Assembly: GCA_018266475.1 (NCBI GenBank)
Contig: JAFEAI010000244.1
Span: forward strand, 8,391 to 72,390
Direction of reading: 5' to 3'
Length of the DNA: 64,000 nucleotides
Source: Bacteroidota bacterium
Lineage (GTDB): Bacteria > Bacteroidota > Bacteroidia > Flavobacteriales_F > PHOS-HE28
Shown piece after piece: positions 2 through 49,079 of the stretch. Each line of letters begins with the position of its first letter. The first letter of the stretch is position 1. A model generated the notes under the pieces. The model made no database searches. It was not told where the DNA came from and saw only the letters and a list, made by a program, of their open reading frames with translations. The position numbers and the translations under genes were made by a program.

Positions 2-3000
2 ATGCTAACACCACTCGGCAATCGTACAGGAAACATCTTCGACCTCCTTCTCCCGCACCTTCAATCCTCCCCTTCGGCCCCGGCGATCACGGCAGGTGGC
101 ACCACCCTCTCCCGGGCCCAGATTGCCGCACAGGTATCCTGCATGGCCGGGCACCTGCACAAGCACGGTTTGGCACCGGGCCAAACCGTGGCCATCTGTC
201 TGGACCGCTCCCCGGAGCTGATCATCGCCGTGCTGGGCATCGTACAGGCCGGGGCGGCATACGTGCCCATCGACCCCGCATATCCTGTTGAGCGGATCGC
301 CGGCATGCTTGAAGATGCCAAGCCCCCGGTGGTGATCACCAGCAAGGAGCACCGGCACCTCTTCACAGGCACGGCGGCCAAAGTGCTGCTGATCGAGGAT
401 ATCGACCTCCTCACCCTCCCCCCCCTCTCCCAGGGAGAGTGGGCGCCCTGTCCTGCGACACCCGACGACCTGCTGTACGTGCTGTTCACCAGCGGCAGCA
501 CCGGCCGCCCCAAGGGCGTGGCCATGCACCACGCACCGCTCACCAACCTGATCCAATGGCAGCTGCGCACCAGTGTGTGCGGCGAGGGTGATCGCACCCT
601 GCAGTTCGCACCCATCAGTTTTGACGTGAGCTTCCAGGAGATCTTCACCACCTTCGCACAAGGCGGCACGCTGGTGCTGATCACCGATGAGGACCGCCTG
701 AACAGCACCCAGCTCCTGCGGAAGATCATCGCCGAGAAGATCAACCGAATCATCGTTCCCTTCGTGGCGCTGCAGTACTTGGCCGAAGCCGTGGAGCGTA
801 CCGGCGAAGTGCCTTCCACATTGAAAGAGGTTTTCACCAGCGGTGAGCAATTGAAGATCACCCCCGCGATCATCAACCTCTTCAAGCAACTGCCCGGTGT
901 GCGCTTCTGCAACCAGTATGGCCCCACCGAAGGCCACGTGGTGAGCGAGCTTGAGCTAAAAGGCGATCCATCCACCTGGCCCGCGCTGCCCAACATCGGC
1001 AAGGCCATCGACAACGTGAAGCTGCTCGTGCTTGATGAGCAGATGAAGCCGGTGAAGAAGGGTGAGGAAGGCGAGCTCTACCTCGGTGGTGCGTGCGTGG
1101 CCAAAGGCTACATCGGCCGTGATGACCTGACGGCGGAACGCTTCCTGGCGGATCCGTTCGTAAAGCCACCCTTCGGCTCCGCTCAGGGCAGGCTTTACAA
1201 GACCGGCGACCGCGCGGCGGAGCTGCCCAACGGCGAGATCGACTACAAGGGCCGCATCGATGGCCAAGTGAAGGTGCGCGGCTACCGCATTGAGCTGGGC
1301 GAAGTGGAAGTAGCCATGGAGAAACACCGTGCGGTGGAACAAGCCGTGGCCAACGTGCGGGAGGACCGTCCCGGATTGAAACGGCTGATCGGCTACTATG
1401 TGGCGAAGCAGGACGTGAGCGTGAACGAGCTGCGCAAGCACCTCGCTTCCCTCCTACCCGACTACATGGTGCCCTCGGCCTTCGTGGCGGTGAAAGAACT
1501 ACCGCGCACGCCAAGCGGCAAGATCGATCGCAAGGCCCTGCCCGCCCCCGATGTAAAACGCCCTGAATTGGACGTTGCGTTCGCCGCACCGCAAAGCGCC
1601 GTGCAGAAGACGCTCGCCAACGTGTGGGCCGATCTGCTCGGCATCGACCGCGTGGGCATCGACGACAACTTCTTCGACCTCGGCGGCAACTCACTGCTGA
1701 GCATCCAATGCGTGGCGCAGCTGGAAGGCCATGGTCTGAAACTGCCGATCGTGAAACTGTACCAGCATCCGACGGTGCGCGCGTGCGCGGCGTTCTTGGA
1801 AGACGATACGAACGCCGTATCGCCCGCCGAGATGGCGAAAGCCCGCGTAGGGGCGAGACATGTCTCGCCCGAAAAGCGGGACATCGCCATCATCGGCATG
1901 AGCGGCCGCTTCCCCGGTGCTGCCAACGTAGAGGAGCTATGGCTGAACCTGCTGGCCAAGAAGAACAGCATCAGCCGCTGGACGGCCGACGAGATCGACC
2001 CGAGCGTGCCCGCCGAGCTGCGCAACGACCCCGATTACGTGAAGGCGCGCGGCGTGATCGCCGACGCCGACAAGTTCGACGCGGGCTTTTTCGGCGTGAA
2101 CCCCAAGGTGGCCGCACTGATGGATCCACAACAGCGGGTATTCCTCGAAACGGCCTGGGCCGCGCTGGAGGATGCCGCATACGATCCCGCGCAATTCGCT
2201 GGCCTCATTGGCGTGTACGCCGGCATGGGCAACAACACCTATTACACGCGGAACGTCATCGGCCATCCCGAGCTCATCGAGCAAGTGGGCGATTTCCAGG
2301 TGATGACGGCCAACGAAAAGGACTACATCGCCACTCGGCTTGCGTTCGAGTTCGACCTGCGCGGACCCGCGATCAGCATGAACACCGCGTGCAGCACCTC
2401 GCTGGTAGCGATCGCACAAGCCTTCCAGGCCCTGCGCGCCGGCGAATGCGACATGGCGCTGGCCGGCGGCATCGCCATCACCGCGCCGATCAACAGCGGC
2501 ATCGTGTACAACGAGGGCGGCATGTACAGCCCCGACGGCAGCACGCGCACCTTCGATGCCGAGGGAAAGGGCACCAGCTTCAGCGATGGCGTGGGCATCA
2601 TCGTATTGAAGAGGCTGGATGATGCGATCCGCGACAACGACCACATCTACGCCACGATCAAAGGCGCCGCGCTGAACAACGACGGCAGCGACAAGGCCAG
2701 CTTCACCGCGCCCAGCGTGCGCGGGCAGGCCGAAGTGATCGCTATGGCACAGGCCGATGCAGGGGTGTCGCCGGATCAGATCAGCTACGTGGAAGCGCAC
2801 GGCACGGCCACGCCGCTTGGTGATCCCATTGAGGTGGAGGCGCTGACGTTGGCGTTCCGATCAGAAAATCAGAAAATCAGAAAATCAGAAAATGGAAATG
2901 CGCCACATTGCACCATCGGCTCCATCAAGAGCAACATCGGCCACCTTACCGCCGCCGCCGGTGCCGCAGGGGTGATCAAGACCGCACTCGCATTGCAGCA

Positions 3001-6000
3001 GGAGCAGATCCCTGCGAGCATAGGCTATGAAAAGCCGAACCCCGCGATCGACTTCGCGAACTCGCCGTTCCGCGTGGCGCAGGACAACATCGCCTGGCCG
3101 CGCACCGACGCACCGCGCATGGCGGGGGTGAGCAGCTTCGGCGTGGGCGGCACCAACGCGCACGTGATCATGGCGGAGCCGCCGGTGCTGGCAGCATCCG
3201 GCGCATCGCGCAGCAAGCAACTGTTCTTCCTCAGCGCAAAGAGCAAGACCAGCTTGGATGCCATGACGGAGAATTTCCGCCAGTGGCTTGCAGCGCACCC
3301 TGATGCTTCCCTTGCCGACGCCGCATACACGCTGCAAGTGGGCCGCCGTCACTTCAAACACCGCCGGTTGATCGTAGGTGGAAGTCACGGTGAAGTGATC
3401 GACGCGATCGCGAACAAGGACGCGCAGCTGATCGGCACACGCGAACTGCACGAGGCCGCACCGGGCGTGGTGTTCATGTTCCCCGGCCAAGGCTCGCAGT
3501 ATGTACACATGGGCCGCGACCTCTGCGAAAGCGAGCCGGTCTTCAAGCAGCATTTCGATCACTGCTGCGAGCTCTTCGGCAAGGAACTCGGCACCGATCT
3601 GAAGGCCATCATCTTCCCGAAAGCGGGTGAAGAAGAAAAGGCCGCCGGGCAACTGAAGCAGACCATCTACACGCAGGCTTCGCTTTTCACCATGCACTAC
3701 AGCCTGGCGAAACTGTGGATGTACTGGGGCATCACGCCCGATGCGATGATGGGCCACAGCATCGGCGAGTTCGCTGCGGCTTGTCTCGCTGGTGTGTTCT
3801 CATTGGAAGATGCCGTGAAGCTGGTGGCCAACCGCGGCCGCATGATGCAGGAACTGCCCGGCGGCAGCATGCTCAGCGTGCGCGCGACGGAGGAGGATGT
3901 AGCGAAGAAACTTCCCGCTGGCTGCTCGATCGCCGCCAACAATGGCACGCAATTGTGCGTGGCCAGCGGTCCGCATGAGGCGATCGCGAAGCTGCAAGCC
4001 GAACTGGAGAAAGAGGGCATCACGTGCAAGCTGCTCGTGACCAGCCACGCCTTCCACAGCCCGATGATGGACGCCATGGTGGCGCCGTACAAGAAGGTGG
4101 TGGAAAGCGTGAAGCTGAATGCGCCGCGCATTCCGATCATCAGCACGGTGACCGCCCAATGGCTGAAGGACGACGAGGCCGTATCACCCAAATACTGGAG
4201 CGACCACCTGCGTGCCACCGTGCGATTTGCACAAGCGGTGAAGTTCGCGTGGGACGATGCGAACAGGGTAATGCTGGAGGTAGGCCCGCGCACCACGGCC
4301 ACCACGCTGGCCCGCCAGCAAAGCAGCGATGCAAAGAAGCAAGCGGCGGTCCCTTCATTGGGCGATTCCGCAGGCAACGGCAACGAACTGGCGCAACTGC
4401 TGAAAGCCGTGGGCGGCCTGTGGCAGAGCGGCGTGCTGATCGACTGGAAGAAATTCCATGAGCGCGAGGAGCGCAGGCGGATCAGCTTGCCGACCTATGC
4501 TTTTGAACGGGTACGGCATTGGGTGGAACCGGTGGCCTTGCAGGGCGTAAATAGACATGATGGACGCGAATTGCCGTCCATCGCGTCCATTCCAGCGCCG
4601 CACACAGATGCGGGCCTTTCTCCCAAGGACCAACTGATCGCGCAGATCAAACATCTTCTGGAGGAAAGCTCCGGCCTGGAACTCGCCGAAGCCAGCAACG
4701 AGGAGACTTTCCTGGAGATGGGCCTCGACTCGCTCTTCCTCACGCAGGTGGCCACCTCGCTGAGCAAAAAGTTCGGCGTGAAGATCAGCTTTCGGCAGTT
4801 GAACGAGGAGCTGCCGAACCTGGAGAAATTGGCGGAACACTTTTTAGCGAATGGGGTGGGATCAGTTGTCAGTTCACAGTTGTCGGTTGTCAGTGCCCGG
4901 ACAACGGACAACCAACAACCAACAACTGCCTCCGCCCTCGAAGACGCCCCTGAACTGAAGAAAGCCTTCGGTGCCCAGGCGCGCATCAGCAAGGAAAAGG
5001 CGGACGACTTCACGCCGCAACAGCGCGCCTGGTTCACCGACTTCGTGAAGCGCTACACGGCCAAGACCGCCAAGAGCAAGGCTTTCACGCAGGAGAACAG
5101 GAAACCGATGGCCGACCCGCGCGTGGTCACAGGCTTCAAGCCGCAAACCAAGGAACTCACTTACCAGGTGGTGGTGGACCGCAGCAAGGGCTGCCACCTG
5201 TGGGACATCGACGGCAACGAGTATGTGGACATCCTCAGCGGCTTCGGCTCGTCGATGTTCGGCTATATGCCCGACTTCATCAAGGAAGCGTGCCACGACC
5301 AGCTTGAAAAGGGCACGGAGATCGGGCCCATGCACCCGCTTGCAGCGGAAGTATCGAAGTTGCTGTGCGAACTCACCGGAGCCGAGCGCGCGGCCGTTTG
5401 CAACACCGGCAGCGAGGCCGTGCTGGGCGCCATGCGCATGGCCCGCACGGTGACGGGCCGCAGCCTGATCATCTCCTTCAGCGGCAGCTACCACGGCATC
5501 AACGACGAGGTGATCCTCCGCGGCAGCAAAAGCCACAAGAGCTACCCCGGCGCGCCCGGCATCATGCCCGAGGCCGTGCATAACATGCTGGTGCTGGACT
5601 ACGGCACGCCCGAAAGCCTGGAGATCATCAAGCAGCACTGCCACGAAGCCGCCGCCGTGCTGGTGGAACCCGTGCAGAGCCGCCGCATGGAGTTCCGCCC
5701 CGTTGATTTCCTGCGCGAGGTGCGCCGCATCACGAAAGAGCACGGCACCGCGTTGATCTTCGATGAAGTGATCACCGGCTTCCGCATGCACCCGAACGGC
5801 GCACAGGGCCTCTTCGGCATCAAAGCCGACATCGGCACCTACGGCAAGGTGATCGGCGGTGGCATGCCCATCGGCGCCATGATCGGCAGCCGCCCGTGGA
5901 TGGACGCGCTGGACGGCGGCGATTGGCGCTTCGGCGACGACAGCGTGCCCGAAGCCGGAGTGACCTACTTCGCAGGCACGTTCGTGCGCCATCCGTTGAC

Positions 6001-19767: not shown

Positions 19768-19846
19768 ACAGGGGTGCTGCGCCATCGGGGGGCAGGGCAG
19801 ACGCATCAAAAACCAAGCGATCAAAACATCGGCGTGAAAATCAAGG

Positions 19847-19955
19847 ATTTGAAGTTGGCCCTTCGGCTCCGCTCAGGGCAGTTCATGTTTATCATCCAGT
19901 CACTAACGAAACATTGCCCTGCGAAGCCGCTCCTCGGCCTCGCCCGAAGGGCCAA
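19847..19955. repeat. Intergenic inverted-repeat element: outer 10-bp IR GGCCCTTCGG / CCGAAGGGCC, inner CAGGGCA / TGCCCTG, AT-rich 45-nt loop, T6 run 19 nt downstream (19974-19979). Contains the 23-mer also found in the NRPS CDS.
   Basis: Direct reading of both arms. Lies in the 340-bp gap between the ABC exporter and the next gene. Confidence 0.45.
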
Positions 19956-20108
19956 CCAAGTACAGCATCGTGTTTTTTCAAGCATGGTGGGCATTCCTGT
20001 CCGTGATGCTATACTGGCTTGGCCAATTTGATGCGTTTGCCCTGCATCCGAGGTACAACCAATCGGCAAGTCGGCTTATGTTTAGGACCTTCCCCCAGCA
20101 CCGTATCC

Positions 20109-48939: not shown

Positions 48940-49079
48940 TATTGAGTCGGCACAAAATGATTGACGATTCGACCTTGTGAAATTTCCTTGATGATCTGGC
49001 GAGGGGCTTCGGCTCCGCTCAGCCCAGTGTATCTGATTACTTTGCAGACAACCGTCAACTATTCAAGGCCGACTCAATA
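48940..49079. repeat. Intergenic IR element: 12-bp IR TATTGAGTCGGC / GCCGACTCAATA flanking a 16-nt core CTTCGGCTCCGCTCAG (49007-49022) shared with 1169-1191 and 19849-19871. Followed by GNRA hairpin ATGCGCC-gcaa-GGCGCAT (49199-49216).
   Basis: Direct reading; in the 393-bp gap upstream of the FkbM gene. Confidence 0.4.

Follow-up and report, generated by a model that had tools for sequence, protein, structure and literature searches.

A probable ISAs1-type MITE with a palindromic core of small hairpin repeats in an uncultured Flavobacteriales lineage

The window, by which we mean the whole 64,000-nt stretch of a Bacteroidota genome analysed here (contig JAFEAI010000244.1), has a GC content of 62.3%, not the 65% against which its features were originally judged. 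An ABC exporter gene is followed at 19768-20108 by an intergenic gap of 341 bp, one base pair more than had been counted. The initial annotation placed in this gap, at 19847-19979, a candidate small structured RNA or MITE-like element, and the stem-loop on which that proposal was based is real, with coordinates 1-10 nt off. Its outer part is a perfect 13-bp inverted repeat (GTTGGCCCTTCGG, 19854-19866; CCGAAGGGCCAAC, 19944-19956), within which lies the 10-bp repeat that had been assigned to 19847-19856/19946-19955 and that is found at 19857-19866/19944-19953. The inner arms, CAGGGCA at 19874-19880 and TGCCCTG at 19915-19921, are as they had been described. The loop between them is indeed AT-rich (35% GC), with a length of 34 nt in place of 45 nt, and a run of six T residues occurs at 19973-19978 instead of 19974-19979. 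The 23-mer that the left arm was said to have in common with a nonribosomal peptide synthetase (NRPS) gene is present in both (19859-19881 and 1169-1191).

The folding check that had been proposed was favorable: over 146 nt, the z score is -3.9 for the plus strand and -4.6 for the minus strand, with none of 200 shuffled sequences folding as well, and the whole 341-bp gap gives values of -5.7 and -5.2 for its two strands. Since the stem-loop is nested within further inverted repeats (19792-19810/20027-20045, 19 nt, 95%; and 19950-19969/20005-20024), the real unit must be about 250 bp long. The stem-loop is a non-random structure, and it is the palindromic core of a larger element; the 133 nt originally delimited are the internal palindrome alone of an element of 252 bp.

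That element occupies 19793-20044. Its ends are 18-bp terminal inverted repeats, CAGGGCAGACGCATCAAA on the left and, in reverse complement, CAGGGCAAACGCATCAAA on the right (19793-19810 and 20027-20044), which are complementary at 17 of their 18 positions. It contains no open reading frame and has no coding capacity. The insertion point is 25 bp past the stop codon of the ABC exporter gene and 64 bp ahead of the next gene, and these two neighbors lie on the same strand. The parts of the element and its immediate flanks are as follows.

19783-19792, no strand: left copy of the target-site duplication, decayed, CATCGGGGGG; 7/10 match to CATCCGAGGT
19793-19810, plus strand: left terminal inverted repeat CAGGGCAGACGCATCAAA; same terminus in the copies L088, L091 and L097, and bounding the elements L104 and L108
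19811-19853, plus strand: left subterminal arm, holding GTGAAAATCAAGGATTTGAAG, which is kept in all copies (copy alignment)
19854-19880, plus strand: left arm of the internal 27-bp inverted repeat; 93-100% identity among copies
19881-19914, plus strand: 34-nt AT-rich loop GTTCATGTTTATCATCCAGTCACTAACGAAACAT; reverse-complemented in the CK_MAG-79 copies
19915-19956, plus strand: right internal arm, a lineage-specific variant (copy alignment, fold)
19957-20026, plus strand: right subterminal arm, with its own hairpin 19950-19969/20005-20024 (copy alignment)
20027-20044, minus strand: right terminal inverted repeat, reverse complement CAGGGCAAACGCATCAAA (inverted-repeat search)
20045-20054, no strand: right copy of the target-site duplication, decayed, CATCCGAGGT; 7/10 match, chance about 0.004-0.01

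The core is made of two inverted copies of a hairpin repeat of roughly 22 nt around the 34-nt AT-rich spacer, and its left internal arm includes, at 19861-19876, a 16-mer hairpin motif, CTTCGGCTCCGCTCAG. In the right internal arm, 22 nt (CGAAGCCGCTCCTCGGCCTCGC) stand in place of the canonical AGCGGAG and make a side hairpin; this variant is identical in L097, and a related one is present in a second copy of the element, on contig L003. When copies from other genomes are compared with the window, the left part of the element (19793-19853) has 80-84% identity to those in other MAGs and the right part (19957-20044) has 80-87% identity to the other copies. The internal arm and loop are 88-100% conserved as against 80-87% for the outer arms, a figure that is inflated for the loop because the copies were found with a 19-mer taken from it. 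The core may have some function, with which its somewhat better conservation would be compatible.

The right-arm variant also holds the heptamer GCGAAGC (window 19920-19926), an unusually stable DNA mini-hairpin, which recurs in an insert within the copy L094 (on the reverse strand) and in the interiors of L104 and L108.

Other copies were sought with the loop 19-mer in a set that holds a single genome for each species. Nine stretches were recovered, many of them at contig ends and all in two MAGs named 'Bacteroidetes bacterium' (SZAS-77/CK_MAG-49 and SZAS AMP-78/CK_MAG-79). They represent at least seven copies, with eight fragments (at least six copies) in CK_MAG-79. Full copies measure 238-240 bp and are collinear with the window over all of 19793-20044; those of the window and of a strain with a 98% identical ABC exporter measure 252 bp. 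All of them start CAGGGCA(A/G)ACGCATC and finish with its reverse complement, and identity among copies ranges from 80 to 100% within a family that has several members per genome. Given on the strand of the window element, perfect 10-bp target-site duplications flank L088 (GGTTTCAGGG) and L091 (GGGTCCTGGA), and a third, TTCATCCAAT, appears when the contig ends L092 and L089 are joined; the flanks of L087 have 8-9 bp in common. The search for target-site duplications, which had been suggested as a test for a MITE, was thus positive, with three perfect 10-bp duplications and a 7/10 match around the window copy. Because the copies align over their full span, with common ends and flanking 10-bp duplications, we regard the unit as a MITE. 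Terminal inverted repeats, target-site duplications and several dispersed copies bear out the 'MITE-like' half of the original proposal. Its known members come from just three or four MAG lineages. Metagenome scans with its left subterminal pattern and with its right-end pattern returned 0 matches each, and neither the MITE nor the related element L104 had a BLAST match among plasmids.

Three contigs from other samples carry an identical ABC exporter gene. Two of them stop within the left arm (...GGCTCCGCTC), and the third agrees with the window as far as CACTAACGA, in the loop, then enters a second copy, about 75% similar, that can be aligned to ~20045 of the window and has a different gene after it. 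From these contig breaks, and from the one contig that is chimeric with a second copy, the species of the window has at least two copies of the element. Contig ends and a chimera at the element are the usual assembly signature of a repeat, and we take them as the mark of a dispersed one.

Gene order around the locus is conserved in relatives, the lineage being an uncultured group of Flavobacteriales. In GCA_027492955.1 (L097), whose ABC exporter gene is 98% identical, the element is found at the same site with five SNPs, two of them in the loop. The corresponding gap is 115 bp long and without the element in GCA_018057455.1 (ABC exporter 86%); in GCA_023957375.1 (L098; ABC exporter 87%) it is 984 bp long, again without the element and with a different insertion. 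What these last two genomes display is absence and not an exact pre-insertion sequence, as relatives at 86-87% are too diverged to be aligned across the insertion point. Since the element is present in the 98% strain and absent from the 86-87% relatives, it appears to be species-specific at this locus and not a conserved regulatory feature.

The orthologous gap of L098 (11816-12799) contains a decayed IS200/RAYT-like open reading frame (MSTYFKLHYHIVFGTRNRVP..., with in-frame stops), flanked by a different family of REP-like hairpins of the type GCGACCC-TTCG-GGGTCG. On another contig (L096, 11822-14396; Logan SRR26671188; ABC exporter 98%), the sequence diverges 5 nt past the stop codon, and a gene for a P-type cation ATPase replaces the MITE and a small CarboxypepD_reg-like gene.

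The terminus of the family, CAGGGCA(A/G)ACGCATC(T/A)AA (CAGGGCAGACGCATCTAA), also bounds elements of 337 bp (L104) and 471 bp (L108 and L103) with unrelated interiors. The 337-bp element has a perfect 10-bp duplication, CGTCTCAAGC, and the 471-bp element has one with a single mismatch. Such ends recall insertion sequences of the ISAs1 family. ISAzs5 of Azospirillum has the ends CAGGGCTCCGAAGTCG and a 10-bp duplication, TCGCCGCGGG; ISArsp11 has the ends CAGGGCTGATGCAAAGTCG and a 10-bp direct repeat (PMC6305408). In E. coli K-12, the H-repeat around yhhI has the ends CAGGGAAAGATCATCAAAAG and CAGGGCAAGATTACG, and its YhhI product is recognized by the ISAs1 model NF033564 (E = 1e-123). The MITE displays the hallmarks of this family, in that its ends start CAGGGC and its duplication is 10 bp (8-10 bp in ISAs1 elements). 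On contig L102, from another organism, the terminus CAGGGCAAACGCATCTAAAT lies 10 nt past the stop codon of an open reading frame ending RLRAGWDTDYLEQLLDVLQAA, which is comparable to the C-terminus of the ISAzs5 transposase, KLAGWDTDYLNAILDVNIR. The end of the L102 frame, AGWDTDYLEQLLDV, resembles AGWDTDYLNAILDV of ISAzs5, a peptide match to ISAs1 transposases that is weak when taken alone (E about 5); L102 carries only 94 nt of the element, and its 21-aa transposase tail falls outside the NCBIfam ISAs1 profile. No autonomous insertion sequence bearing these ends was recovered at full length, in the copy-bearing genomes or elsewhere.

Because of its CAGGGC ends, its 10-bp duplication, and the L102 terminus beside a transposase-like C-terminus, we assign the MITE to an ISAs1-type transposase. 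The similarity of its ends to those of ISAs1 elements is evident at the level of sequence; from it we infer which transposase moves the element. The stem-loop flagged at the outset is, then, very probably the internal palindrome of a 252-bp ISAs1-type MITE that has no coding capacity. We suggest that a DDE transposase of the ISAs1 family, supplied in trans, would bind the 18-bp terminal inverted repeats and move the element, leaving a 10-bp target-site duplication. The insertion in the window would be old enough for its duplication to have decayed to 7/10 and recent enough to be confined to the species.

The elements L104 (8709-9045), L108 (2319-2789) and L103, which come from two IMG isolate-genome proviruses, also have an internal block, GCCACCTTTGCTCCGCCGGAGCGAAGCGCAGGCGGATGG, in common.

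An alternative is that the structure acts as RNA, either as a small regulatory RNA or as a cis-acting structure (a 3'-UTR stabilizer or attenuator) selected at this locus. The strong folding of both strands would suit such a role, as would the location between two same-strand genes, 25 nt past a stop codon, and one arm change that keeps a G-U pair in three copies. Equal folding of the two strands, however, is what a DNA palindrome is expected to give. A search of Rfam produced no relevant match at E <= 10 (three chance-level matches, E = 0.66-1.6, lay far below gathering scores), and a scan of the gap for intrinsic terminators detected no terminator-like site. The T6 run lies 17 nt past the stem, inside the loop of another hairpin, that of the right subterminal arm. 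No -7 box of the Bacteroidetes type was found in the gap on either strand, even when one mismatch was allowed; the sole promoter-like match there is a 9/12 sigma-70 site, to which little weight attaches in Bacteroidota. The arms of six canonical cores, a small sample, display four kinds of change, all of them one-sided (A.C, G.T, G.A, A.C) with no double change, so none is compensatory and three break pairs. The element is, moreover, absent from the same gap of relatives and present at unrelated loci with target duplications. With no Rfam match, one-sided arm changes and patchy occurrence at the locus, the 'small structured RNA' half of the original proposal is unsupported. We consider an RNA function of this kind very unlikely, and we find no evidence that the core is a gene, for an sRNA or otherwise.

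A different sort of regulatory role is raised by the loop itself, whose orientation varies relative to the rest of the MITE. When the outer arms are aligned, the 34-nt loop is reverse-complemented in 8/8 CK_MAG-79 fragments, and it has the opposite orientation in the window, in the second copy of the window's species, in L097 and in L087. The internal repeat is asymmetric close to its outer end, with TTAGCC on the left and TTGGCC on the right, and this difference stays unswapped, which places the breakpoints of the flip inside the 27-bp arms. Both orientations existing relative to the outer arms, and breakpoints falling inside the arms, are what one would expect of an inverton, in which a recombinase flips the loop between the 27-bp inverted repeats and thereby controls neighboring genes. 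Yet the orientation is uniform within each genome (these being consensus assemblies), both in the eight fragments of the one MAG and in all copies of the window's lineage; the loop contains no promoter motif, and there is no adjacent recombinase gene. The 34 bp between the sites also falls far short of the invertible segments that are known, and probably leaves too little room for two duplex sites to synapse. Because the distance is so short for recombinase synapsis, a regulated switch seems unlikely, and we give the inverton almost no credence. A uniform orientation per genome fits instead a single inversion in a master copy before amplification. Recombination or replication template-switching between the 27-bp arms is the most likely cause, and would have flipped the spacer in that master copy of the MITE.

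The hairpin motif within the core has a distribution of its own. In the window, the 16-mer CTTCGGCTCCGCTCAG occurs three times, at 1171, 19861 and 49007, and the rest of the element surrounds the MITE copy only. The MITE and the NRPS gene have a 23-mer in common because both carry this motif. The two solo copies are the following.

1169-1195, plus strand: solo hairpin motif in the NRPS adenylation domain, CCCTTCGGCTCCGCTCAGGGCAGGCTT, in frame as PFGSAQGRL
49003-49025, plus strand: solo intergenic hairpin motif, GGGG-CTTCGGCTCCGCTCAG-CCC, with a different complementary stem

In the NRPS, the motif lies between DPF and LYKTGD, so that the window reads DPF-VKPPFGSAQGR-LYKTGD; 16 orthologues (76-93% identical) are without it and read DPF-xxGGR-(L/M/S)Y(K/R/Q). 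DNA alignment with orthologues of about 90% identity gives a net addition of 18 nt, in frame, with GGCAGGCTT in place of GGTCGATTG, which encode the same amino acids (the neighboring Gly-Arg-Leu) by other codons. The NRPS 27-mer, CCCTTCGGCTCCGCTCAGGGCAGGCTT, is identical to sequence in the unrelated viral contigs L041 and L051. The intergenic copy lies between a glycosyltransferase gene and a gene for an FkbM methyltransferase, and every contig of the species from other samples that reaches the site has the motif, so no presence/absence polymorphism was seen at 49007.

An orthologous NRPS from another Bacteroidota MAG (P0127) has a different insert, DPFEEQGLSGRAQPRLYKTGD, at exactly the same position in the adenylation domain; its 'LSG' is the translated start of the reverse-complement strand of the hairpin motif (LSGAE). 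Two Logan contigs start 10 nt upstream of the motif at 49003-49025. In the CK_MAG-79 copy L094, the left internal arm has a 40-nt insertion, TCGGATGTTTTACATCCTTGCGGAGTGCCGCTTCGCTTAT, inside the 16-mer, between GGCTCC and GCTCAG, and this insertion creates a second variant of the motif, CTTCGCTTATGCTCAG.

Beyond the window, the 16-mer is found in 83 stretches of IMG/VR, of 32-68% GC, as compared with 11 for a reversed-sequence control (about 7.5-fold). It is usually enclosed by 2-9 complementary bases, its flanks forming a mean of 1.9 Watson-Crick pairs as against 0.57 in a control pairing. Among 82 distinct viral instances, 60 fall within open frames 150 or more codons long, and the instances occupy every frame except the one in which the motif reads TGA. 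Inverted doublets with short spacers occur on L033, L062, L066 and L068, a variant (CTTCGACTACGCTCAGGGCAGGC) lies inside a transposase gene on a Trichlorobacter plasmid, and insertions resembling the hairpin are nested at arm tips within the MITE family: in the right arm of the window copy, in L094 and in the second copy, on L003. When the literature was searched for these motif sequences and for their translations, nothing but irrelevant papers came back. We considered a sequencing-adaptor artefact and rejected it, since the flanking stems differ and are complementary; hammerhead and K-turn readings were dropped on the reasoning that the conserved core nucleotides do not fit.

On the reverse strand of L050 (IMGVR_UViG_3300014656_006080; about 4325-4420), a contig of 34% GC, at least five 24-nt units, CTTCGGCTCCGCTCAGCAACCATG, are arrayed in tandem. 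L039 and L028, which belong to one 20.7-kb contig of 45% GC, together contain seven dispersed copies of the motif.

These distributions bear on whether the core (19854-19956) is a separate mobile unit of the REPIN kind, nested in the MITE or captured by it, with a hairpin that spreads by its own means. The excess of viral stretches over the control, the complementarity of the flanks, the tandem 24-nt array on L050 and the inverted doublets would all be in keeping with such a unit, as would the in-frame NRPS patch that close orthologues lack, the hairpin-like variants nested within arms, and the existence of MITEs with related termini (L104 and L108) that do not have the core. The AT-rich loop, by contrast, is found inside the MITE only, and a scan of viral sequences for inverted 12-mer pairs 30-60 nt apart gave 0 matches. 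Neither of the REP tags, GTAG and CGTC (criteria of PMC3733652), is present in 19854-19956 on either strand, and no RAYT gene is linked to the core. The 64-kb window has just two solo copies, and about 145 kb of related loci have none. Direct repeats of at least 7 nt flank just 9 of the 82 viral instances (a modest enrichment over the roughly 2 expected), and the site at 49007 is not polymorphic. We therefore think a self-spreading core rather improbable, and such a core would in any event leave room for the outer element to be a MITE. A related idea has somewhat more to recommend it, and we put it forward tentatively: the 16-nt motif could belong to a cross-phylum family of ultra-small hairpin elements of about 20-30 nt, of which the NRPS loop would be one case and the core of the MITE a doublet.

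Recognition of the MITE removes a false candidate sRNA from the annotation and accounts for the breaks at the site in assemblies of this lineage. The high-GC Flavobacteriales, a little-studied group known solely as MAGs, gain an ISAs1-type MITE family. The 252-bp MITE is an ordinary kind of mobile DNA, and the observations made alongside it are more interesting than the MITE itself: a loop fixed in opposite orientations in different lineages, a hairpin with complementary flanks in contigs of 32-68% GC, and an in-frame addition of 18 nt to an NRPS. Should the hairpin turn out to move, it would rank with the smallest known mobile sequences and would be a source of small in-frame insertions in proteins.

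Like the bacterial MITEs RUP, Correia/NEMIS and Nezha, the element is about 250 bp long, intergenic and strongly folded, with terminal repeats, target duplications and no open reading frame. It differs from them in that a small hairpin repeat makes up its interior, a nearly perfect 27-bp palindrome, in a loop orientation that varies by lineage, and in that the genomes holding it yielded no autonomous partner. We know of no described ISAs1-derived MITE.

The core, in turn, is like REPINs, the REP doublets moved by RAYT transposases, in consisting of two short imperfect palindromes, inverted and separated by a short spacer, that form a larger hairpin (PMC3116915, PMC3733652). REPs are also known inside open reading frames (PMC3733652). 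The core differs from REPINs in its low copy number and in that no linked RAYT gene was found; REP families are usually species- or genus-specific, whereas the 16-nt motif occurs in contigs of 32-68% GC. A further likeness is to the small dispersed repeats (SDRs) of the Nostocaceae, reportedly described by Elhai et al. in 2008 as 21-27 nt hairpin repeats found as single units, in tandem, or nested in each other and in MITEs. Two later papers that cite this work call them short mobile elements (PMC3116915, PMC5861425), and in the second of these they are reported in Nostocaceae only (PMC5861425). The hairpin motif is found both in Bacteroidota and in phage contigs, and variants of it occur on plasmids from other phyla; its likeness to SDRs is one of concept, drawn from descriptions of SDRs and not from their sequences. 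On present comparison, the motif resembles REPs in open reading frames and SDRs and would not be identified with either. Rickettsia palindromic elements (RPEs) are about 100-150 bp long, as against a net insertion of 18 nt here. They are palindromic repeats that lie in frame in functional protein-coding genes (PMC3733652), and it is this in-frame manner of insertion that they have in common with the hairpin in the NRPS adenylation domain.
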